64,000 nucleotides of DNA from Lophium mytilinum (GCA_010093605.1 MU004188.1:499673-563672); one strand, 5' to 3'; positions 5,536-27,437 are shown, counted from the first letter of the stretch. The notes: a model not told the origin generated them from the sequence alone. Made by a program: numbers and translations.

Positions 5536-7188
5536 ATGGCAGCTCCCCCGCCAAGTATAGCGAAGGACCTCTTCGAGGACATGGGACGCAAAGTAGCGGA
5601 CGCGCAAGGCGAAGGAATTGACGACGGCGAGTCGAAAGTTGTCGACGAGATCGAGACGCTCTGCATGAACTGCCATGAAAATGTACGTAAATCGCAGTAC
5701 TTCTCTATACTTTGACAATACTGATTATGCACCAGGGCACCACACGACTCCTCCTCACCAAGATCCCCTTCTTCCGCGAAGTCATCATAATGTCATTCGA
5801 CTGCCCCCACTGCAACTTCAAGAACTCCGAGGTCACGCCCGCCGGGGAGATACAACAACGCGGGTGCAAATACTCGTTCAAAGTAGACCGGGCTGCGGAC
5901 CTCAACCGACAGATCGTAAAGAGCGATACTTGCATATTCAGGATAGAGGACATTGACTTGGAAATACCACCAGGCCGGGGACAGCTGTCGAATGTGGAGG
6001 GCATCTTGAGCATGGTCGCCGAGGATCTTGCGCAGAAGCAGGCTGAGCGGAAAGAGCTTATACCAGAGGTCTATGAGCAGATCCAGGGCATCATCAGGAC
6101 ACTAGAAGCCATGAAGACTGGTCTTCAATTCCCATTCGCCATCACCGTGAATGATCCTGCAGGGAACTCGTGGATAGAGCCATCGCCAGACGACAAAGGC
6201 GGGAAGTACTCGCGACACGAGTACGCAAGGACCCCAGAGCAGAATGAAGCTATCGGACTCGGTGGCGGAGAAGAGGAGGCGGCGGCAGACGGAGACGCAC
6301 CACCTACAGAATTGCGACCCGAATACCAAGCTTCGCAAATGTACCCCCACATGGCAGCGGCGGGCACCAACAACGTCGACGACGACGAGATCGAGGAAAA
6401 CCAGGTCTACTCATTCCCGGCAACTTGTCCAGGCTGCACCAAGCCTTGCGCGACCAACATGAAGATGGTTAATATCCCCCACTTCAAGCAAGTCGTGCTG
6501 ATGAGCACGGTATGCGAGTACTGCGGGTGTAAGTTCCCTATCAATCCGCCAAACTCAAACATATACTAATCTTGTTACAGATAGAAGCAACGAGGTCAAA
6601 ACCGGCGGCGCCGTCCCCGAAAAAGGCCGCCGCATCACCATCTCCGTCGAAAACAAAGCCGACCTCTCCCGCGACATCCTCAAATCCGGCTCCTGCGCCG
6701 TGCGCTGCCCAGAACTAAACCTCGAAATGGAACCCGGCACGCTCGAAGGCCGCTTCACCACCATCGAGGGCATCCTCACGCAGGTCCGCGACGACCTGCG
6801 CAACTCTACCTTCGACGAGGAGAGTGGCGGCAGTGGCAGCGACTCGGTGCAGAAGGAGTCGAAGGCGAAGTGGGACGCATTTTTCGATAAGATCTCGGCG
6901 GGGATTCGCGGGGATGTGAAGTTTACGCTGATTTTGGAGGATCCGTTGGCCGAGAGCTATGTGCAGAGCTTTACGGCGCCCGAGCCGGATCCGCAGATGA
7001 CGGTGGAGGATTATGTGAGGACGCATCAGGAGGAGGAGGATTTGGGACTGAATGATATTAAGACCGAGGGGTATGAGGAGGGGCAGGCGCAGGAGGAGAA
7101 GGCGAAGGTGGAGGAGGCGAAGATAGAGGAGGCGAAGGCGAAGGCGGAGGAGGCGGCGAGTAATGGGATGGTGGCGGAGGGGGGTTGA
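5536..7188 (+). CDS. ZPR1: Zinc finger protein ZPR1
   Basis: Two ZPR1 modules: [36 protein letters not shown] and CPGC...IPHFKQVVLMSTVCEYCG, with NDPAGNSWIE and LEDPLAESYVQ. Two introns near 5683 and 6528. Confidence 0.96.
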
Positions 7189-8066: not shown

Positions 8067-11000
8067 CTATGGCTTCCATACCTGTTGGAGCGCAGAGTAA
8101 TTCTCCATATATAGTTGAGTTCTTGGATGATCTGGTCCGAGTTTTTCTTGGAAGCCTGCGCATGCTCTCTGGTAGAGTTGTGAAGCTTCTTCATACTGCT
8201 GCCGTTGGTGTAGTACGTATGCAAGATTATGTACGCTCTGTAGCGTGTGTGGGTGCTCTTTCCCTAGCACCTTCTCCCTCCATTCCAACACTTGTCGGTG
8301 TAAGGCCTCAGCGTCGGCGTACTTCCCCTGTTTGCTTAATGTTATCGCTATGTTATTTACGCTCGTTAGCGTGTTGGGATGCTCTTTCCCTAGCGTCTTT
8401 TCCCTCCTTTTAAGTACTTGTCGGTTTAAGGCCTCTACCTGCTTGTGCTTTCCCTGATTGCTTAGCACCACCGCTAGGTTGTTCATGCTTACTAGCGTGT
8501 GTGGATGCTTTTTCCCTAATATGTTCTCCATCCCTTTTAAAGCTTGTCGACTTAAGGCCTCTGCCTGCTCGTACTTCCCCTGTTCTTTAAGCACTACCGC
8601 TAGGTCGTTTATGCTCGCCAGTGTGTCAGGATCTTCCGCTCCAAAAGCAGCCTCCTTTGCCTTTAATGCACCTCGGTTCATTTCCTCTGCCTCCTTATAT
8701 TTTCCCATCTCACTTGCATACCACGCCGCTTTGTGGAGAACGGACGTCCATGGCTTGACGGCCTGCCCACCAGCAGGCTGACACGCGACCGCTGCCCGCG
8801 CGTGGGGATACAGCGCTTGGCACACCGCCCAGTTCTTGTGCTCCCCCAACGGGAAATTATCGTACATGAGCTTTACAAAAGTCTCTTTCCAGCTTTCTAG
8901 CTCGTCAAATAGCTCTAGCCATTTCTTCATTGAGAACTGCACTAGCCGGTGCATCTCAAACTCGCGTCCGTCTACATTCATCCCAATCAAGGAATAGTTC
9001 GTCAACGTAAGAAGATCCTCTTCAAAGTCAGCTTCTTCAACCACGTCTAGCTGGTATCGGCCCTGGAGAAGCGACTCCGGAATCCCTTGTCTGTCGAAAA
9101 AACTCATCAGCGACAGTAGTCGAGCCGCCGTAGGCATCTCCTTGCGGATATGTGTAAACGAGATCTGCCAGGTGGCGATGATGGAGTTATAGGCTCTTCC
9201 ATCCCTGCGACCGTCTCCTACGTCCTTTGTAAGTAGACGAGCTCGGTCCTGGTCGTTTTGGCGGAATTCGTCTATATATCGCGAGACAGTCGTACGGGGC
9301 GCTCTCTGTTCGATATAAGCCGCCGCCTGCGTGATCGCAAGGGGCATGTAGTCGAGAGCTTCAACTAGTTCAAATGCGTCGGGCTCGTTCACATTGCTGA
9401 GCTTTTTCTGGAGGAGAGCTAGTGCTTCACCCTCGTCCATCGGCTTGACTTCCACCAGGCAATCTCCACGTCCTGCCAGTCTGCGCGCCACCTCTCGGTC
9501 CCTGGAAGTAATGAGGATCGATCCGTTCGGCGATTGTGGTAGAAATTCAGACAGTAGTTGTGCTGCTTCATCTAGATTACTAAGTCCAGCAACTTGCGTT
9601 TTGGGAGTTGTAGGGAAGAAGACAGCTGAATCATCGGCGTTGTCGATAACCATCACCCACCGCCCGTTCGACTCATCGCAGAGCCATTTACGAACGAGCC
9701 GTAGGATATCAGCTTTTGGGTCGTCCCAGCCGTCTATCTCCGTCTTCTCCGCAATCCTCCGGTAGCTTTCCTCGAATCTTGCTCGTGTGCTTGCATGCAC
9801 CCAGAACACCCACGTTGTCGGCGACTCGTCCTGGATTTGGTAGGTGTGTTCGATTGCGATCTGGGACTTCCTGCGCAGGCTGTTAGTATCAGTGTCGTGC
9901 GTTTATGGGGTACGGCACTCACCCAACGCCTCCAAGGCCGAAGAGCGCCGCGCGACCTGCTGGCCTGGCACATATCTGGCGTATCTTATCAAGGCTATCG
10001 CGGCTGATGAAGTGGTCGTCCCGCCGGAATGGGACTGTCGAGGATGGGGAAGGCTTTGGTTTGCGGTCGTGCAGGATGGTAACAGGGCCTAGACGGCTTA
10101 GTAAAAGCACCAAGTATGGATGTGAACATGGTGAGGAAGTATGTTCAGGACCGCGATGGGCAACTAGATTACACACGTTTGATTCCTTCCCAATCCTCCC
10201 AGTTTTGAGCAACTTTCTCTTGCGCGCTCTCACACATGATGCTTATATGGCCCGCAACGGTTTGAAAGTCATCGTCCGCGCGATTTCCGAACTTCACCAA
10301 GGTAATGTGATTTTTCCTGATCTCGACAGACTCCGCATCTCGCATTCCGGGGACCACGGCTGATACTTTGGGGACCATCTGTACGCATGTTAGAGACGTG
10401 CCACCCATCCTTCCCGGCAAAAGATTTACCATCATCGAACGTCCCGCTGGAAGGGGGGTTGGATATGACTCGAAGCAAAATATTGTAAAGACTTCCGAGC
10501 TTATAGTCTTGTATTGCTCCAGCTGTATTTCTAGCCACTCAGAGTCCCTCTCCAAGTGCTCAAGGATCGCTGTGTTAGTGTGTCGGAAGACTGAGGTGAC
10601 GTTGGCCAACACTTTTCCCCATGATGCGCTCTCTGTACCTTGATGAGGTGTTCCAAAGAACATAACTCCATAGGTAGAGAGCTTAATAGCTTTGATGTGT
10701 TCTCTATCGGAAACACTCGCCATGTTTGAGTGAATCAAGGCCTTTTGTCCTGTCAGCGCCGCACTCTACGTTCACACAAGGTCCTAGTGTCACTGACGCT
10801 TTTTACGACGATACCGCCCAGGCTATGGGCAAGGAAAATGATCGGGCGCCGCTCGGTCTTGTGGATGCCTCGTCAGTAGAACTCGCACGCTTCTGACCAT
10901 TACGGCACTTACCTTTGTTCTTCGCCGATACAGACTCAGTCCGGATATAAGACTCATGGAATGGCCGTATAGTGTCTGGTGCGAGAGATGCTCCGAGCTC

Positions 11001-11480
11001 CGCGTTCTCGAGTCGTACCCGTATGTGAGCACTCGAGCGTTCGGTACGTCTTTCGGCAGCAATGTCTGCAGCCACAGGACTCCATTGTCTGCCGTCCATG
11101 ACTTCTCCCTATGCCCGTCAAGGCCGTGAACCGCGACGATGCTGATTGTAGATGATGTGATCAGCCAGAGAGAACTGGAAGTGCTATGGCTATCCTCACT
11201 CGATGGATGGGGCCTCGCCCTCTACCAGGCATTTGATACCATATGCGCTTTCTTCGGGAGACGCTGATGCTGGAACGTTTGCGACGTGATTTATAGGTTG
11301 TGAACTTGGCTGGGCCTGTGGAACCTCTTCGAGAGGCGCTGAACGCGGGGTATCGTTTGGGACGCGGTTGACAGGTTCTGAAGGCTGTACCTGGGAAGCG
11401 TCTTCGGCCGCCGTACGCGCTGTGTGCTGTTTCTTCTTCCGAAATGGCAACTTCATTTTCTGTTGTAGACCCAAAGGCAT
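8067..11480 (-). CDS. NLR-like protein: SesB/DUF676-like alpha/beta-hydrolase + NB-ARC + TPR repeats
   Basis: Six GT-AG introns splice in frame. Motifs: DIVAVHGLDGH, ARVLTYGYDS, RPIIFLAHSLGGIVVK, FFGTPHQG (hydrolase); VPFRRDDHFISR, GLGGVGKSQIA (Walker A), WVMVIDNADD (Walker B), GSILITSRD, MPLAITQAAAYI, MHRLVQ; then about five 42-aa HPxTLxSxNNLA TPR units. Start is 11480 or 11456. Confidence 0.92.
8100..8730 (-). repeat. Coding tandem repeat, about five 126-bp TPR units
   Basis: Recurrent QGKYxxAEALxRQxL...LGKEHPxTLxSxNNLA with 42-aa period. Confidence 0.85.
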
Positions 11481-11748
11481 AACGCTAGTTGATGAGGTAC
11501 TCTACGAGTGAGTGTTGAGTATTACAACAGGCTGAAGATTTGTGAGGCTCCAGAGCCACAAGGCTGAAGTAGGCTAACTAGGGCTGAATCCGGAAGAGCT
11601 GAAGTCAGCCTCACGGTGCGCTGTACAAGCCCACATAGACACTTTAGCTGCATCTCAAATCCGAGCACAGCCCGAAAGCTATGTGCGCGGCTGCCGCCTG
11701 CTAAATGAGATTTCCGAAGCCTCTTTTCTCGCATTTACGCCCTCATTG

Positions 11749-12385
11749 ATGGGTGCTCACGACGGAATGAGTGCGACGTCAAGCCCAGCAAGCTCCTCGG
11801 TACCACGAACGATGAACATGAATAACGCAAGCACCACAGAAGCAGTCGTCAAATCTTTCGAAGGATTCCTCTCCTTCGTCATTGGCCTCTCCATCTTCGG
11901 CGCCTCAACCTTTGCAGTCATCGTGTCCGACATCGCGAACCCCAGCACTATCTCCGAGAACCCGCAATTTACGCGCAAGACAGTCCGCACCTTCCTAGGG
12001 ATTGCTTGGTTGTTCTTTATCCTTGCACTGGGGATCGTCGCCCTGGCCATGAGCCTGCTGGCGGTCCAGCGGGAGCACACCAAGGCTGGGTTTGACGGCC
12101 CTTGGAGACGCACGTGGGAGCGTCTGGGACTCCTGGCTTCTTCTTTCATCCAGCTGCTCGTCACTGTGGCGTTTCTGTTTCTTTCGCTGGTCCTGGTGGC
12201 ATATGCTGAAGCAGTTGGATGGGTTGCTGTAGCATTCACCTCTGCAACAGCCGTGTTTACTGTTCTATCGCTCGCGGTTCAATGGTCGTAAGTGTACCAG
12301 ACTTTCTCAGCTAGTCGGCTGTGCTGATAATAGACTTGAAGTAAACTTTTTGGGCGCAGAGAAGCGTGATCCCAGACAGATCTGA
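11749..12385 (+). CDS. Small uncharacterised integral membrane protein, about 4 TM helices
   Basis: Four hydrophobic stretches: FLSFVIGLSIFGASTFAVIV; FLGIAWLFFILALGIVALAMSLLAV; LGLLASSFIQLLVTVAFLFLSLVLVAY; VGWVAVAFTSATAVFTVLSLAV. Probable intron 12288-12333 (GTAAGT...CTGATAATAG); the unspliced form stops at 12291. Confidence 0.8.
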
Positions 12386-13392
12386 TGCACAAGGGGGATT
12401 CGGCAAATAGCCTATATGGGATGGCATTGGTTATACTGGTGGCCGGAAAGTGGCCAATCCGCACCGGCCACACCATGATGAGATGAGTCCTGCGAGCGTT
12501 TCCGGTCGATTAGTGGTGCGTTTGAGGTCGTGCTTGTGATCATGTTTGAGGTTGGATTAGAGGTCTAGCTGTCAGGGTTCTGCCTAATTTAGCTTCCGCT
12601 TTTCCAAGATACTTCATGGTTAGATCTGGCGCTAGCTGAAACAGTCTCCTTAAGCGAGAGGCTGCGGGCCGAACCAGGACTCGAAAAATTTGATCCTACC
12701 TTTGTACCTTTGTATTTATCAACCATGTGCCTATGATACGGCTCAAAAGACACTTAACGCTGGCGATAAGGTAGCTTCGAATCCGCCTATAGGGAAGTTC
12801 GAAGTTGTCCTGCAGCCTGACGCGTATTTACGAAGTTACCTTAGTAGGAGAAAACGAGCGTATGATATACGATCTAACAGGGCTGCTCGTGCAGTATCAT
12901 CGGCTCCACTGCTCTTCGATCCCATCATTATCGGCTCGTTTCCGGCGGAATACGTTGATGCTACCTTGCGTACCAACAAGCGTATTTCCGTGCTCCCAAA
13001 TGAAATCAGAAGTATCTGGAGTAAACAGCCTATTGGGTGTATTGTCAGGAAGCCGAACCGGCCCCCAAGCGGCAGCATGGCTAAGCCTCAGAGCCCGCAG
13101 CGGGGTTTGAGCTTCAAGGCGCTCTCAGCCGTTCAACAAGCATGTCGCATACCCTTCGACCTTTACTTGCTTGATCGCACTGGTTATGAAAGGGGCCGAA
13201 TCAGACTCCCAGAGCCACTTAAAGAGTCCCAAATTCTGGTGCGCCTATTACCGTGGATTGGCTACCGGCATACGACAATTCCAAGTCACTCTCAGCCCTC
13301 AGCCTTGACCTCCATCCTCAGTCCTCTCACTGCAGCTCTCGCATAATTCTTGAGGCCCTCCATCATTTGTAGCCGCCTAGAACGTCGTCCCA

Positions 13393-16300
13393 ATGTCTGT
13401 TTTGCTAGAAAGTGCTTCACGACTGAAGCCCGAGATTCGACTGGCTCAAGCTGTTCACCAGTTCAAAGAAGACCTTTCGAGCGAGCAGAAAGCTACCTTC
13501 CGTACCAATGAGTCCTCACCTCCGGACCCCAGCGATGTCATGCGACTCACAGCTGAGATTGACCGCCGGGCGGCTCAAAAAAGAGGCGTCCGCTCTTTTG
13601 GACCTTGCTTCACATATTTCCTACAGGCAGTCCAGCAATTTGCTGCGCTGGGGGACGTTGTTGTAGGAGGCTCCCAGAATATGATTGCATGTAGCGTCTG
13701 GTCACTGGTGCGGATGTCATTACTCGTTCGTATTTCAGCCCTCCCCGACTACCTTCTCTACTGATATCATGAATAGGCCATTGTAAACTTCTCGACATAT
13801 CTTGAGAAATTTTCGACCCTTTTCATGGCTATTGGTCGCTCAGCACCACGTTACCAAGATATGGCCCTACTGTATCCTCGATCCAAACGTTTACAAACAC
13901 AACTATCTGAATACTTCATTGTGGTAGTTGGCCTATGTCACCGGCTGTTGAAGTTTACTCAGAAGTCGGCAATCAGACAGATTGTATCTAGCCTTAGCGA
14001 CTCAGACTTAAAGACATTTCAATCTGAGCTTGATATCTGGGCAAACTCAATCAAAGACGAGATAACCTTGCTAGTGGCGAGCAAGGTCGAGGAAGAAGCT
14101 CAAGGGAACTCCCACTTTAGGATTCGATCCAACAGGTTTTACAGATCCGCATCCCACCAGCAAAAGCTAGCCACAAATCTACGGGTCCTCGGGTTTTGCT
14201 CAAAATATGACCACGAGACGACATGGAAACAGACTCGAAAGGTCGGAAACACAGCTCTTTTCAGTCAAATCGCCGAATACAAGGAGTGGAAAAGCAAAGC
14301 TACGTCCTGCACACTCATATATACGGGCAAGTTAGGGTCGGGGAAGTCCGTTATGCTTGCGAATATTGTCGACGACCTACATCTTTACCATGGAGGTAAG
14401 GATATTGCAGTAGCCTACTTCTTTTGCAGACACGACATTCCCGAGAGCTTGACGGCGCAGACAGTTACTGGCTCTCTAGCGCGACAGTTGTTACGAACGA
14501 TACCAGACCTTGCTATGGTAGCAGACTCGTGCGAAAGTACCACTTCAGCCCCGGATTTCGAGGATGTACTGAATCTACTACGTCGCGCCTTTCCACCCCA
14601 TCGCAAAGCGTACTTCGTTCTTGACGGGCTAGACGAATGCGACCGTTCCCAGAGAGAGACGCTAGTTCAACAACTCTGCATGCTCCAAGAAACCCTTACG
14701 CTACTTGTCTGTGTCTCGTTCAGACTTGAGCCAAACACCGCGTTAGAGTTACAGCCCCAACAGTTCGCTGCTGCTACTACAGCTACCATCCCTGATGACA
14801 ACCCTGATATCGAGGGATTCATTGAGGCGGAGTTAGCGAGATGTCTTGAGTGCAGGAAGCTGGTATTAGGGGACCCTGCTCTGATACTAGAGATACAACA
14901 TGCTCTCTTGGACGGCTCCAAAGGAATGTTTCTATGGGTGGCTCTCCAAATCCAAACCTTGTGTGACAAGAATACAGATCAAGACATCCGCGAAACTTTA
15001 GCGGATCTTCCTAAAGACCTCTCAGAAACATTTTCTCGGATTCTACGGCGATCGCAAGTATCGGGGAAGTCTTACCAAAGACAGATACTACAGCTCGTCA
15101 CAGTAGCCTACCGATACTTGACATTGGACGAGCTTCGAGAAGCTTTAGGCGTAGTTCCAGGAGACGAAGTTTGGAACCCTTCAAGGCTCCCGAACGACGT
15201 TTACTCGACGCTGGCTTGCTGCGGATGTCTCCTCATGGTTGACGAAGAGGAGTCCACTGTACGATTCGTACACCATAGCGTCAAGCAGTTCCTCCTGGGT
15301 GGATTTCATGACTCAACCAATACACCTTTCACGCTTGACAGCGCACAGAAGACGATGGCAGATATTGTTATCACCTACCTCAACTACGGTGTCTTTGGAA
15401 CCGAACTATCCACAATGAAAGTCCCACAGATGAATACAGCATTGGCACCGTCCAGCATCATTCGTTCAACTCAGGGGCCTTCAAGCACTGTTCAAAGTCT
15501 TGCTTTGAAGTACTTAAAGTTGAGAAAGCACCCTGACTTCGATATTAGCAAGAATCTTGCAGAAGCGGGTAAATCGTTCCAGGCACATTCGGTGGACGCG
15601 TTTTTTTTCTACTCTTACGCAAAGATGTACTGGATACAACATGTCCAGTACTTTTCGGAACAAGAGCTAGTCGTATGTGACTTGCTGCTCAAAATTTCGA
15701 AAGGGAAGGCAAGGCAGACGATCATTACTAATGAAGAGGGCAACACCCTGCTGGGGTGGGCAGTGACAGTGGGGTATGGAGCCGTAGTCGAGCTGCTGCT
15801 CGAGACGGGCAAGATCGACCTCGAATCTGGGGGTGAGCTGCTATTTTGGGCAGTAAAGAACGGGCACGACACCGTGGTAAAGCAGCTGCTAGCGATGGGT
15901 AAGGCTGATGTTAACTCCATGGACATAGATAATGATACGCCGCTGTTATGGGCGGCTAAGAACGGGCACGAAGCAGTGGTAGAGCTGCTACTCGGGACCG
16001 GCCAGGTCAACGTTGATTTCTCGTACAATGAATATCGTGAAACACCCCTGGAGCAGGCGGCTACGAGTGGACACGAGGCTGTTGTTAAGTTGCTGATTGA
16101 AGCCAAGGCCGACGTTAACAAGACCTCGAAGGCTGAATCCCGTCAGACACCGCTATTTCGGGCAGTTCAGAGAGGGCACAAGGCTGTAGTAAAGCTGCTA
16201 CTCGAGGCCAAGGCCGACATCGAATCTAAGGACCACTCCACCAATCGGACGCCGCTATCTTGGGCAGCTGAGGACGGACGAGAGGCTGTTGTCAGGTTGC

Positions 16301-17136
16301 TGCTGGAGGCTAAGGCCGACGTCAACTCCAAGGATATGCACGAATGGACGCCGCTATCTTGGGCAGTTAGATACGGGCGAGTGGATGTTGTTAAGCTGCT
16401 GCTCGAGGTGAAGGCCGACGTCAACTCTAAGGATAAATCCGGACGTACGCCGCTATCTTGGGCAGCTGAGGACGGGCGAGAGGTTGTTGTTAAGCTGCTA
16501 CTCGAGGCTAAGGCCGACGTCAACTCCAAAGATATGCACGGATGGACGCCGCTATCTTGGGCAGCTAAGGACGGGCGAGAGGCTGTTGTTAAGCTGCTGA
16601 TTGAGGTGAAGGCCGACGTTAACTCTAAGGATGAATTCGGACGTACGCCGCTATCTTGGGCAGCTAAGGACGGGCGACCAGCTGTTATCAAGCTGCTGCT
16701 CGAGGCTAAGGCCGACGTCAACTCCATAGATATGCACGGATGGACGCCGCTATCTTGGGCAGCTAAGGACGGGCGAGAGGTTGTTGTTAAGCTGTTGCTT
16801 GAGGTGAAGGCCGACGTCAACTCTAAGGATAAATCCGGACGTACGCCGCTGTCTTGGGCGGCTGGGAACGGGCACGAGGCTGTAGTAAAACTGCTGCTAG
16901 CAACGGGTAGGGCTGAAGTCGACTCTGAGGATAGATACGGATATACGCCGCTATCTTGGGCAGCTGAGAACGGGCGCGAGGCTGTAGTAAAACTGCTGCT
17001 AGCAACGGGTAGGGCTGAGGTCGACTCTGAGGATAGATTCGGAGATACGCCGCAATCACGGGCGACAAAATCGGGGCATAAGGTCATTGCAGAGCTGCTG
17101 CAATCACACCTTGACTTTGCTGGCACGGCTGGGTAG
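13393..17136 (+). CDS. NLR-like protein: N-terminal helical domain + NACHT + about 14 ankyrin repeats
   Basis: Intron 13726-13776 joins ORFs 13393 and 13825 in frame. Walker A GKLGSGKS, Walker B YFVLDGLDE, GMFLWVALQI, LPKDLSETFSRIL, VRFVHHSVKQFL, then TPLSWAAxxGxxxVVKLLL ankyrin units. Confidence 0.94.
16243..17100 (+). repeat. Highly conserved coding ankyrin tandem array (99-bp then 102-bp units)
   Basis: Anchor ACGCCGC(TATCTTGGGC) recurs at 16249, 16348, 16447, 16546, 16645, 16744 and 16843 (99-bp period), then 16945 and 17047 (102-bp period). Confidence 0.95.
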
Positions 17137-18814
17137 GATCGATCGCCTCCTCGCTACCCACCACCTACTACCCAATCATATAATCTTTTCATGGTATATA
17201 ATGGATTCAAGGCAGCGATATATTCTAACAAGCCAGCGAAGGTCTCGGTCAAGGGTGCTATCTGCGACCTCGTCTCGTATTCAACAGTCTTGTACTGGAT
17301 GGCTGGAGTTGGCTTCGACCGGTTCAGATTGATGCTTCACTGAAGGGACGACATGGAAGCTGAACGCCGATTCGAGCGACAAATCCAGCTCTGCCCATGG
17401 ATACTTAGTACTGTGCCCTGGTTCTCTTTCTTATCTCATCGATGTTGAAGGGCGAACAGGCTGGTCCTATTTCCTACAATTACCATTTCGTCTGGAGTTG
17501 GTTATAGCAATCCATACATCTTGTCTTTTCTCCATATTCTTCAGGTAGATCTGACGAACTATGCATAATTGCATATCGCCCGTCCGACCCCAGCTTCAAC
17601 TCTTAGGCACCCTATCTACGCACCGAAATCTTCGACGCCTTCTCATTTGCCGCACTTGGCACGCCCTCTGCCTACATCTAAAGACCCGTAGCCAGTCTGA
17701 TGGATATCAAGCGTACTGGAGAAGATACGAGTAAACACCAAATGGCCTCGTTCCTGCAGACATGGACATGCATGGACATGCTTTGTCATACTCCGCGGGA
17801 TACCCAGTGGGGATGGAGCTCCGAAGGCCCGAACTTCGAAGCAGTCCATTTTAGCTGGAAGGGGCGGCGAAAGGGTACGTTCCGCTAAATGCCTACTCTA
17901 AATTGCCATAGCTTGGCGTGAGAACCGAGAGACACCGTCGCGAAGTGCTACCGTTCGGGATTGAGTCGAAGTGTTACAAAGAGTTCCAGGTCTAACCGTA
18001 CAACAGCCTTGCGGTATACGAGGCATGCACATGGCGGGCCCTTTGAGTAGGTATTTCAAAGATTTGACTTTCCTTTTCAGTGCTGCGACAATAGAATGAG
18101 GAGAGATGGAGGGCTTTTGTCCTCGGTCTCGATCGTCTTTCTACAAGGAGTTATAGATCCGACTGTTCAACGAGTCTTATGGTACACGCGGCGTGGACGC
18201 GGAATTATTCGGTGTGGTGGTATCTCGTCCCAAATTCATGGCTTCGAAATCGGGTCAGCATTTGACATGTCGAGCTTGAGCCCATGAAACAATTTGAAGT
18301 ACCAGCCTCACGTATATACGGTCTGCCGTTGCATGAAGTAACATTTCAAGCACCGTGATAGGAATTTACGCAGTCAATAAACGAAAATCACGTGTCGACC
18401 ACGTGCTCGCCACGTGCTACAGCCTGAGGTTGATTTCGGCCGTTTTAGTAGTCTTAAGGTGGATAGGTAGCAGCTGGACGCTGGATATGATCTGACTACA
18501 GTTATTGCATTCTCTGATCTATGTTGTGACCCAGCATGACTTACGACGATAGCGGAGACAGCTAGGATCGAGCCGGGCTGCCAGTGTCTGTGGTACCTCA
18601 GCGAAGTCAAAGCTTGATCTCCTTGATGAGATTCCGTTGTATCCAGAATCTTGAAAACGCATTGGAGTGCTCTTGGCGGTGGTAGAACAGCGTGCTTGCA
18701 TGGAACTGACTTGAAATATCACAGCCCGGTGTATCATATACCAAGCTATACCGCTGAAACCCTCTCCTCAACGCCAACGCCCAGATGAAAACCTTCTGCT
18801 CCAAATTCTAGATC

Positions 18815-19549
18815 TCAGCCCCTGAGGGCTTGGAGTCGTCCCTTCATCTCCTTTAATTCTTCCTCGTTGTTCTCCTCCGTGACAGGCACTGTCGGTACGC
18901 TATCCACAGGCTTCTCCGCACTCGCCGGCAGCCGGTCCTTCAGGATCTCACCCAGTATCTTGTCCACTTCCGCCTCGGCCGCATCATCCTCGCCCTCCAA
19001 CAGCTCGCTATCCGGTAAACTGTCCCCCACCATCTCCTCAATGATCCCCGCCCGCACCAGCTCCTGACTCAGCTCTCTCATTGTGCCGGTCAACTCTGGC
19101 AGCCGCACCAGTGAATTCACATCTTTCATGATGCCTGTGCTCGCGCGAAGACTACCCTCGATCTTGCGCACCGAGAAGGCCTCATTGACTTGCATCTGCA
19201 CGCTCTGTAGCTGGGCCTTGCCTGTTAGGAGGCGGCTGTTCTGTTTCCGGATAGTGATGAGGCTGCGAGCGAATTCGCGAGTGGCATCTCGCTCACGTAT
19301 GGCTGCGCCGGAGTTGGGAGAGGCCCTTTGGGCGCGCTTCGAGTGTTCCACGATTAGAGCTTTGGCCTTGGTTTCGGCGGTTTTGAAGCCCTGGATTTCG
19401 CGTTCGAGTTTGCGGACGTTGGAGCGGACGAGGGCGTTGCATTTCCGTTTCTGAATCAGTTGATTAGCTGTGGTTGGTAGAGTAAGAGATGTAGTAGGCA
19501 CCTGTTCTTCTGGAGTGGGCTTCCAGAGGAGACCACGGATGGTCTCCAT
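18815..19549 (-). CDS. VPS24: ESCRT-III subunit Vps24 (Snf7 family)
   Basis: KAQLQSVQMQVNEAFSVRKIEGSLRASTGIMKDVNSLVRLPEL, AGIIEEM and C-terminal MKGRLQALRG. One in-frame, stop-free 51-nt intron after EEQ. Confidence 0.92.
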   Translation of the reverse strand: METIRGLLWKPTPEEQVPTTSLTLPTTANQLIQKRKCNALVRSNVRKLEREIQGFKTAETKAKALIVEHSKRAQRASPNSGAAIRERDATREFARSLITIRKQNSRLLTGKAQLQSVQMQVNEAFSVRKIEGSLRASTGIMKDVNSLVRLPELTGTMRELSQELVRAGIIEEMVGDSLPDSELLEGEDDAAEAEVDKILGEILKDRLPASAEKPVDSVPTVPVTEENNEEELKEMKGRLQALRG

Positions 19550-20146
19550 GGCGCACCGTGGGTACGGTCAGTGCTGCAAGGCCGGAAGGAAGTTCGGCTG
19601 TGTTTGATGTAGAAATTGGGAAGTGTCTTCACTCTTATGGCGCTTTATGGGAGGCTCCTAGGTGCTATGATGGGTTCGCAGTGAGACTTGTTGGCGCGGG
19701 AGAGTTGCAGCGGGAGCCGCGCCGACCACTGACGTTTGAGGGCGGGGCAGCTCCGACTTCGAGTCTTTCAAGCTGGTCAATTTGTGCGCAAAGAGTGTGC
19801 AAGGCGTGCATATTGTTTCACTCGGAGCACTATGTTCCCTCTGATAATATTCTCAAGTTCCGGCTGCGAAAATGGGGCGCATTTCCTGTCGACGGCGTCA
19901 CGATCGGCTCGCATTTCGATTGCCTTCCACAAACATCTCTCCAGCCTTGAGGCGCTAGTAAAAGGTGCAGCAGCCCTGGACCCTCCTCTACTCCTCTCGT
20001 CTCGTCTGCTTCGACATCTCTCTTCACCAACCACCACTCTCTCACTTACACTGCTACACTCGGCTACCACCTGAGCCTCTCGAGCCAACAACAAAAACAC
20101 CGCCGTCCTCTCTGTGCGACGCCCACACCCCCGCCTTTCCATCAAT

Positions 20147-27216: not shown

Positions 27217-27437
27217 CGCATTTTCTCTTTTCCAGGAACAAATTTCCAAGTGGGTGATGGACAAGGCTGAGGTTTATATGAAAGCGTCGATCACTAACTA
27301 CAATAAGCGTAAGCAATGCGGCTGCACTGCGCCACAGCCTTGTATCACTCCATGACCCTCAGCTCTTTTCCTGCGTCTGCTAGAAAAAGCTCCAAAATCA
27401 TATCTTGTGTGCGCAGATTACAACGTCTTTGCGAGGA

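Follow-up and report, generated by a model that had tools for sequence, protein, structure and literature searches.

A locus of the Dothideomycete Lophium mytilinum brings together, at positions 8067-17136 of a 64,000-nucleotide stretch of genomic DNA (GCA_010093605.1 MU004188.1:499673-563672; hereafter the window), two genes for NOD-like receptors (NLRs) of different classes and one small gene for a membrane protein, and this raises the question of whether the three genes form a unit and, if so, which of them belong to it. All three are intact and transcribed: gene A encodes an NLR with a lipase-type hydrolase domain, gene B a protein with four predicted transmembrane helices (4-TM) and gene C an NLR of the NACHT/ankyrin type. 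An earlier note, made from the sequence alone, had placed three genes with intact frames between ZPR1 and VPS24 and had proposed that they act as a three-gene immune module; we found all three where it had put them, with a Snf7-family gene as the right-hand flank. Our analysis suggests that A and B probably represent a conserved, co-regulated unit of a lipase-type NLR and a membrane partner. Gene C may instead be a local neighbour that stands beside the pair in this fungus alone, possibly under the same regulation, and not a conserved member of the unit.

Results

The A-B gene pair recurs in rearranged loci

Gene A occupies positions 8067..11480 on the minus strand and encodes a DUF676 (sesB-like) hydrolase/NB-ARC/tetratricopeptide repeat (TPR) NLR of 1017 amino acids, a gene model of seven exons that draws on RNA joints, Pfam matches and homologues. 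Gene B (11749..12291, plus strand) is a single exon covered by an RNA contig, and it encodes a stand-alone 4-TM protein of 180 amino acids that matches no Pfam model. The earlier note had put the two starts about 270 bp apart, and the measured ATG-to-ATG distance is 268 bp. The transcript evidence comes from contigs of a single run (X1), which carry the label 'RNA?' but are spliced, and whose depth cannot be used to rank genes; these spliced contigs cover A, B and C and confirm 6 of the 7 introns of the region.

The neighbourhoods of 4-TM relatives were sampled in metagenome contigs, which supplied 20 loci with a 4-TM relative and about 199 kb of locus DNA, or some 14 groups after merging of the near-duplicates L008/9/10, L011/14, L015/16, L017/18 and L005/7. 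These loci were searched by tblastn with the A, B and C proteins and with a DUF676 profile over all six-frame open reading frames (ORFs). A DUF676/NB-ARC gene was found directly adjoining the 4-TM gene in three of the 20 loci (L001, L002 and L006), and the DUF676 profile had no further matches in the roughly 199 kb of locus DNA. In L001, a 4-TM gene whose product is 71% identical to B is followed in tandem on the same strand, after 618 bp, by a DUF676/NB-ARC/TPR gene. The 4-TM protein of L002 is likewise 71% identical to B, and here the two genes are divergent, with 228 bp between their ATGs, on a contig that ends inside the hydrolase. L006 holds 4-TM copies that are 36-40% identical to B, the second of two being divergent with a DUF676/NB-ARC gene.

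The genes that flank the pair in L001 (a carboxylesterase, a formyltransferase, an E1 dehydrogenase and HAT1) are not the ZPR1 and Snf7-family genes of the window. Since both the flanks and the orientation differ between loci, it appears that the A-B pair has been rearranged while staying adjacent. Genomes of Sordariales are described as containing on average 56 NLRs each, and the 964 sesB-like NLRs counted in 82 genomes amount to about 12 per genome (PMC12258605). At such a density two genes should seldom adjoin by chance, and three adjacent cases lie far above chance expectation. Gene C had no relative in any of the 20 loci.

The paired copies are also grouped in the 4-TM family tree, a quick tree most of whose rows come without known gene context, which deprives label-shuffle figures of meaning, and from which L004 and L013 (partial matches) as well as L019 and L020 (34-38-residue matches) were left out. 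One clade unites the 4-TM proteins of the window, L001 and L002, its sister clade contains the two L006 copies, and the six NLR-free locus groups are placed in outlying clades.

A and B share a promoter motif

The 268-bp divergent promoter region of A and B (11481..11748, between the two ATGs) contains 3 of the 17 GCTGAAG sites of the window. Between the window, L001 and L002, the intergenic sequences cannot be aligned except at one element of about 22 nucleotides, with the consensus CC[AG]CAAGGCTGAAG[TC][AG]GGCT[AG]A[CT], which is a direct repeat of GGCTGA with a 4-nucleotide spacer. In the window, the motif (CCACAAGGCTGAAGTAGGCTAAC, GGCTGA-N4-GGCTAA; 11556..11580, plus strand) lies 190 bp 5′ of the ATG of gene B and about 80 bp 5′ of that of gene A. 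The L002 motif, at position 671 on the plus strand, is found 129 bp from the 4-TM ATG and about 100 bp from the NLR ATG, upstream of both. In the tandem arrangement of L001 the motif occurs twice: the first copy (position 9784, plus strand) is located 217 bp upstream of the 4-TM ATG, and the second, a 29-nucleotide inverted duplicate (position 11063, minus strand), about 100 bp upstream of the NLR ATG. The relative orientation of the motif is thus constant in the window, L001 and L002: it reads forward with respect to the 4-TM gene and in reverse with respect to the NLR gene.

The exact 11-mer CAAGGCTGAAG occurs at four sites in the 263 kb made up of the window and the loci, and all four are in these promoters, while the 17-mer with up to 2 mismatches is unique in the window, where 0.01 occurrences are expected. 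Furthermore, one gapless RNA contig (11200-12554) spans exon 1 of gene A, the spacer and gene B, which fits overlapping divergent transcripts, the contig itself leaving the transcript starts undefined.

A third copy of the 9-mer CAAGGCTGA was observed at position 27262 of the window (as CAAGGCTGAGG), where it lacks the second GGCTGA half-site.

The hydrolase domain and the 4-TM protein are conserved while NB-ARC and TPR are exchanged

Comparison of gene A with its homologues domain by domain showed that the DUF676 domain of the window is 79-85% identical to those of P0207, P0209 and P0210 and 81% identical to that of L001, whereas in the same comparisons identity was 23-27% and 31%, respectively, for NB-ARC, and 25-35% and about 30% for the TPR region. 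The DUF676 domain of P0208 likewise has an identity within the 79-85% range. Among the window, L001 and L002, the DUF676 domains are 78-81% identical to one another. The NB-ARC/TPR part of gene A is as close or closer to that of P0223, P0226, P0232 and P0251, whose DUF676 domains are 45-55% identical. This pattern indicates that sensor and switch have been exchanged around a conserved effector domain, as has been recorded for fungal NLRs before (PMC4986451, Table 2). The 4-TM protein of the window is 71% identical to its counterpart in L001 and has diverged at a rate close to that of the DUF676 domain (81%), suggesting that gene B is tied to the output end of the receptor and not to its sensor.

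Gene A encodes a predicted serine hydrolase fused to an NB-ARC/TPR receptor

The seven exons of gene A lie at 11480-11200, 11141-10913, 10857-10798, 10741-10430, 10378-10177, 10088-9923 and 9870-8070 on the minus strand, with the ATG at 11480 and the stop codon at 8067-8069. Introns 2-6 are supported by RNA joints in the contigs of run X1; the support for intron 1 consists of its GT..AG ends and of homologues that read straight across it.

The N-terminal ~90 residues are of low complexity and are followed by a DUF676/sesB-like α/β-hydrolase domain (about residues 94-345; 10177..11141, minus strand, exons 2-5) that contains the motifs VAVHGLDGH, AHSLGG and FFGTPHQG. Across 14 homologues, neither the nucleophile Ser of AHSLGG nor the His of KNHITLVKF varies. 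When the exons were searched singly against Pfam there was no DUF676 match, and the homologues of the hydrolase at 47-86% identity carry PF05057 or are named DUF676. Judged by its sequence, the hydrolase is a member of the DUF676 (PF05057) family in which the nucleophile motif and the catalytic His are kept, and it is a predicted enzyme. An AlphaFold2 model of the domain, built from 14 sequences, had a mean predicted local distance difference test (pLDDT) score of 50.8, too low for a fold search, and a sequence search of the PDB with the DUF676 profile returned 0 matches at E <= 0.01.

The linker, the Walker A motif, the NB-ARC domain and the winged-helix region (DUF7779) occupy 8841..10088 (minus strand; boundaries approximate), and the Walker A sequence GLGGVGKS spans the junction of exons 6 and 7. 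The last exon, searched without the exon that holds the P-loop, gave a weak Pfam match to NB-ARC (E 0.0028; 17.4 bits, below the cut-off of 23.5) and one to DUF7779 (E 9e-11), and homologues of gene A carry PF00931 (NB-ARC). The same exon matched TPR_12 (E 8.6e-59) and TPR_10 (E 9.9e-58), and this repeat region (8070..8840, minus strand), the presumed sensor, includes a tandem array with a 126-nucleotide period at 8227-8616. With a predicted nucleoside triphosphatase (NTPase) that has a Walker A motif and is followed by C-terminal TPR repeats, gene A is a fungal NLR.

A search with the hydrolase exon retrieved 170 longer proteins at E <= 1e-5, of which 120 were listed. Among the matches listed, PF05057 or the name DUF676 or SERAC1 is found in many, NB-ARC and TPR accompany the hydrolase in most of the long homologues, a few combine it with NACHT and ankyrin (P0217 and P0271), and some are short stand-alone or truncated models. 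These proteins represent the sesB-like lipase/esterase class of N-terminal domains in fungal NLRs (PMC4986451, PMC12258605). Nine proteins (P0207-P0211 and P0213-P0216), from Elaphomyces, Glonium, Pyrenochaeta, Phaeosphaeriaceae, Geoglossum, Peltigera and other sources, form a tight DUF676 subclade with 63-86% identity to gene A, and among the matches listed the homologues outside this subclade have at most 58% identity.

The public L. mytilinum model of the gene A locus (P0206) is a 'partial' protein of 269 amino acids that is 100% identical to one exon. It omits the 20-codon exon 3 (10798-10857), which holds the AHSLGG nucleophile motif, retains intron 4 (10379-10429) as coding sequence and is cut off from the NB-ARC/TPR part. 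P0208, P0209 and P0214 agree with the seven-exon, 1017-amino-acid model and not with P0206.

Gene B belongs to a large family of stand-alone 4-TM proteins

There are 64 homologues of gene B of near-equal length, and a profile of 52 of its homologues matched 522 representative clusters at E <= 0.001, 364 of them at 1e-10 or better. The named members come from Sordariomycetes, Dothideomycetes and one Orbiliomycete, and by these sequence matches gene B belongs to a large, unannotated 4-TM family of the Pezizomycotina. Its conserved residues are chiefly small or aromatic and lie in the helices (SIFGASTF, R..L...WL.F, AFLFLSL and AY...VGWVAV). The family is essentially stand-alone, the best 150 of the 522 representatives being mostly 100-350 amino acids long. 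By the positive-inside rule, the K/R-rich loop between TM2 and TM3 and both termini of B would face the cytosol, where the NLR is.

Pfam gave no match to B and none that was convincing for the 52 family members; among their weak matches (E <= 1), DUF3087 was the commonest, in 8 members. UniRef labels a few relatives of B as PGG (PF13962) or MARVEL (PF01284), and we rejected both labels, as neither is among the 25 most-matched Pfam families of the 52 members.

AlphaFold2, run on the 52-sequence alignment, predicted four long helices with a mean pLDDT of 76.7. A Foldseek search of the PDB with this model found nothing at E <= 0.001, and its best score in the ESM Atlas was 0.88, below the 0.9 line. 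The best alignment was that of the model with Drosophila Orai (4hkr_A), a calcium release-activated calcium (CRAC) channel, with a Z score of 11.9 and a root-mean-square deviation of 3.4 Å over 125 residues, and the plant immune channel WeiTsing (8hf2_A) followed with Z 8.8. In Foldseek, Orai reached a TM-score of 0.44-0.47 at E ~2, and an Atlas cluster that is partly Orai-1 scored 0.82. The scores for Orai and WeiTsing are in a range that is common for helical bundles, the caution line being at Z ~13, and the resemblance may serve as a structural lead only; between B and Orai we found no sequence or Pfam relationship and identified no conserved acidic pore residue.

Two of the metagenome loci showed further features around the 4-TM genes. 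In L006, the two diverged 4-TM copies (L006:132-644 and L006:2939-3408) are in opposite orientation, with a DUF6594 ORF between them. In L016, a protein kinase domain and ankyrin ORFs (L016:1502-4691) lie upstream of a distant 4-TM relative on the same strand and could be another signalling gene that adjoins the 4-TM family.

Gene C is a second NLR with a variant of the motif

Gene C (13393..17136, plus strand; exons 13393-13725 and 13777-17136) encodes a NACHT/ankyrin NLR of 1230 amino acids, supported by Pfam and RNA, and its sole intron (13726-13776) is RNA-confirmed. The Pfam matches are NPHP3_N (E 1.8e-24), NACHT (E 1.5e-7), GPIID_WHD (E 3.8e-6) and Ank_2 (E 3.5e-114), the NACHT domain lying at about 14266-14692 and some 13 ankyrin repeats at about 15700-17100. 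The combination of a NACHT NTPase with ankyrin repeats places the predicted protein among the fungal NLRs. An ankyrin tandem array at 16181-17000 has a 99-nucleotide period and about 8 copies with 79-84% matches; internal repeat similarity of the kind found in this array and in the TPR array of gene A is described for fungal NLRs (PMC4986451). The helical N-terminus resembles DUF7708, which reached 21.5 bits against a cut-off of 25 with the exon-2 part alone, the domain being split by the intron. In sequence, gene C resembles neither A nor B.

A variant of the promoter motif, GGCTGA-G-GGCTGA within CAAGGCTGAGGGCTGAG, is present at 13292..13304 (minus strand), 89 bp upstream of the ATG of gene C and reverse to it. 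Its orientation is the same as at the three DUF676-NLR genes, and its distance is similar (89 versus 82-103 bp). The pattern GGCTGA-N0-6-GGCTRA has only two sites in the 64-kb window, one in the A/B spacer and this one upstream of gene C; first-order resampling, repeated 200 times, gave on average 0.155 hits and in no case two or more, a post hoc figure because the spacer range was widened after the site had been seen. The position of this site raises the possibility of local co-regulation of A, B and C in this fungus.

The RNA contig of gene C begins at 12716, so that at least 677 nucleotides lie unspliced 5′ of the ATG, an unusually long leader that includes the variant GGCTGA repeat.

These data bear on the proposal that both NLRs and B are co-regulated as a three-gene module, in which sensors of two classes would share the membrane protein as their effector. 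A, B and C are all intact and transcribed in the same RNA run, they form an accessory-looking block amid housekeeping genes, and the GGCTGA repeat pattern is confined within 64 kb to the A/B promoter and gene C. However, a relative of gene C was lacking from all 20 loci, its DUF7708-like helical N-terminus is dissimilar to A and B, and its motif has a spacer of 1 nucleotide instead of 4 and lies within the transcribed 5′ region of gene C, with a statistic that is post hoc. In addition, clusters of two unrelated NLRs are described as common, with 225 in 82 Sordariales genomes (PMC12258605), so that the proximity of gene C alone means little. We therefore regard a three-gene module as unlikely. 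Of the unit that the earlier note had envisaged, the A-B part is supported, being paired in 3 of 20 loci and sharing a motif, and the membership of gene C as a conserved component is not. The note's analogy with the head-to-head sensor/helper pairs of plants also fails, since gene A faces B, and gene C follows B on the same strand.

The flanks of the locus

On the left, the locus is bordered by ZPR1 (5691..7188, plus strand), which encodes a zinc ribbon and two jelly-roll domains, and on the right by the Snf7-family (ESCRT-III, endosomal sorting complex required for transport III) gene at 18815..19567 (minus strand), which was established at the family level only; VPS24, the name given to it earlier, belongs to the Snf7 family. 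The remaining large ORFs of the window are housekeeping genes (among them Dbr1, Rpr2, a HAD hydrolase, a tRNA methyltransferase, ribosomal S5 and Mre11). We found no paralogues of A, B or C elsewhere in the 64-kb window and no repeats flanking the A-B-C block, the intragenic ANK and TPR arrays being the only repeats detected.

Between gene C and the Snf7-family gene, about 1.7 kb (17137-18814) is covered by RNA contigs, and yet its ORFs are all short and lack Pfam matches. The 3′ end of gene C is overlapped at 16923-17300 by another RNA contig of greater depth (3034 nucleotides, depth 524) that differs from the window, with four changes at 16953-16976 among the differences listed; this contig could represent a convergent transcript arising in the unannotated region 17137-18800 or a repeat-related misplacement.

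Discussion

The recurrence of the pair, its common promoter motif and the parallel divergence of the DUF676 domain and the 4-TM protein together make it probable that A and B are a lipase-type NLR and its membrane partner, conserved and regulated as a unit. In the mechanism that we propose, gene A would be an all-in-one NLR in which the TPR region is the presumed sensor, the NB-ARC domain an ATP-driven oligomerisation switch and the DUF676 serine hydrolase the output, and B would be transcribed from the promoter region of A through the common GGCTGA direct-repeat motif. Oligomerisation of the NLR, driven by a ligand, might then allow the lipase-like domains to act on membrane lipids, an action that has been proposed for sesB-like domains by analogy with SERAC1 (PMC4986451). 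B would be the membrane-resident partner, either as a docking site or co-effector that determines where the hydrolase acts or as a membrane protein switched on by the hydrolase. Membrane damage and a regulated death of the cell would follow. In this scheme, physical or functional contact of the DUF676 domain with the 4-TM protein, the activity of the domain as a lipase and cell death as the end point are all presumed steps.

Several observations weigh against such a unit. The sample is small, consisting of three loci and the window, and one of the three (L002) is a 1.4-kb contig. In L005/7, L008-10, L011/14, L012, L015/16 and L017/18, the DNA around the 4-TM gene, up to 10 kb, contained no NLR, and there was no DUF676 gene in L004 and L013 (partial matches with flanks of 1-1.9 kb). 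The promoter motif is absent from L006, where, moreover, both the DUF676 gene and the adjacent 4-TM copy need frame changes at homopolymer runs, those in the DUF676 gene being of one base, which may be sequencing errors or may mark pseudogenes. The DUF676 domain of L006 is about 44% identical to any in the set and lies outside the subclade of the window, and ancient co-inheritance of the two genes is therefore not supported. A fused 4-TM/NLR protein was not found either: the 19 longest of the top 150 representatives of the 4-TM family have no NLR or hydrolase domain, and a search aimed at longer relatives of B gave one match, a low-complexity protein of 327 amino acids. NLR neighbours of 4-TM homologues, for which the earlier note had suggested a test, occur in 3 of 20 loci, and the wider family often lies apart from NLR genes.

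A different role for B within the pair is also conceivable, in that it could protect the cell's own membranes from the NLR hydrolase or be a guarded host membrane protein that the NLR monitors. Tight linkage and co-transcription suit the logic of a poison and its antidote as well as that of a co-effector, and it is likewise to be expected that such a pair would move as a unit, as A and B have done. A guarded target, on the other hand, should co-vary with the sensor, yet it is the TPR and NB-ARC parts that have been exchanged while the DUF676 domain and the 4-TM protein were kept, which speaks against a guardee. The roles of protector and co-effector fit the present data equally, and on the whole we hold it improbable that B is a protector or guardee.

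A more far-reaching scheme would make B an oligomeric cation channel like Orai or WeiTsing, or a membrane-rupture factor, that is opened or remodelled by the lipase domain of the NLR without an amyloid relay, and would have several NLR genes, including gene C, driven by one dedicated transcription factor that binds GGCTGA direct repeats about 80-100 bp 5′ of their starts; we consider this combination quite improbable. It is very unlikely that A and B are chance or historical neighbours, with an unrelated B sharing a bidirectional promoter and the other loci reflecting common ancestry, for although the wider 4-TM family often lies away from NLRs and the copies of the window, L001 and L002 are close (4-TM 71%, DUF676 78-81%) and possibly derive from one ancestral arrangement, adjacency was kept despite changed flanks and orientation, the motif of L001 is duplicated with one copy per gene, the distant clade of L006 (36-40% identity) is also paired, and the pair persisted while NB-ARC fell to 23-31% identity.

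The unit of lipase-type NLR and membrane partner, which remains the reading that we favour, can be compared with several known systems. The architecture of gene A, including its internally similar TPR units, is that of the fungal sesB-like/NB-ARC/TPR NLRs described by Dyrka et al. 2014 (PMC4986451), and sesB-like domains are reported to be among the most frequent N-terminal domains of ascomycete NLRs (PMC4986451, PMC12258605, PMC9815663). Such NLRs have been described as all-in-one and partner-free (PMC4986451), whereas the DUF676 subclade of gene A comes with a neighbouring 4-TM gene. In the amyloid clusters hellp-sbp-pnt1 of C. globosum, sesA/sesB/het-eN of N. haematococca and het-s/nwd2 of P. 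anserina (PMC7885112, PMC5485727), an NLR gene adjoins genes for cell-death proteins of the membrane-acting and the lipase type, and the window, L001, L002 and L006 are alike in that an NLR gene adjoins a partner gene. The closest precedent is found in C. globosum, where the sesB-type lipase SBP is reported to be brought to the membrane region by the clustered HELLP (PMC7885112). Unlike in these clusters, however, lipase and NLR are here parts of one polypeptide, an integral 4-TM protein takes the place of the soluble HeLo-like pore former as the partner, and we found no amyloid motif common to the proteins. The earlier note had likewise seen no amyloid signalling motif, and a BLASTP comparison of B with A and C at word size 2 gave a best E of 0.92.

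Divergent transcription from a short common promoter is a feature that A and B share with the head-to-head NLR pairs of plants (PMC12258605), but the gene from which A diverges does not encode an NLR, and A and C do not face each other. In Sordariales, head-to-head NLR pairs are reported to be rare, making up 13 of 225 two-NLR clusters (PMC12258605).

Both A and C have architectures that were described before. The apparent novelty lies in the conserved association of a DUF676-NLR subclade with a 4-TM family that has not been described, and in the promoter motif common to the two. Full-text searches of the literature and passages of PMC9815663, PMC12258605 and PMC4986451 yielded no transmembrane partner gene of sesB-like NLRs, and the word 'transmembrane' is absent from the main text of the first two.

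Given that sesB-like lipase NLRs are among the commonest NLRs of fungi, a conserved membrane partner would provide a handle on the site and the target of their hydrolase. It would also extend the theme of the fungal NLR with a clustered effector beyond amyloid signalling. The pattern of an exchanged sensor beside a retained effector domain and 4-TM gene points to the part of the receptor that is tied to the downstream machinery, and the promoter motif may lead to a transcription factor that would be the first known to regulate NLR genes in fungi.

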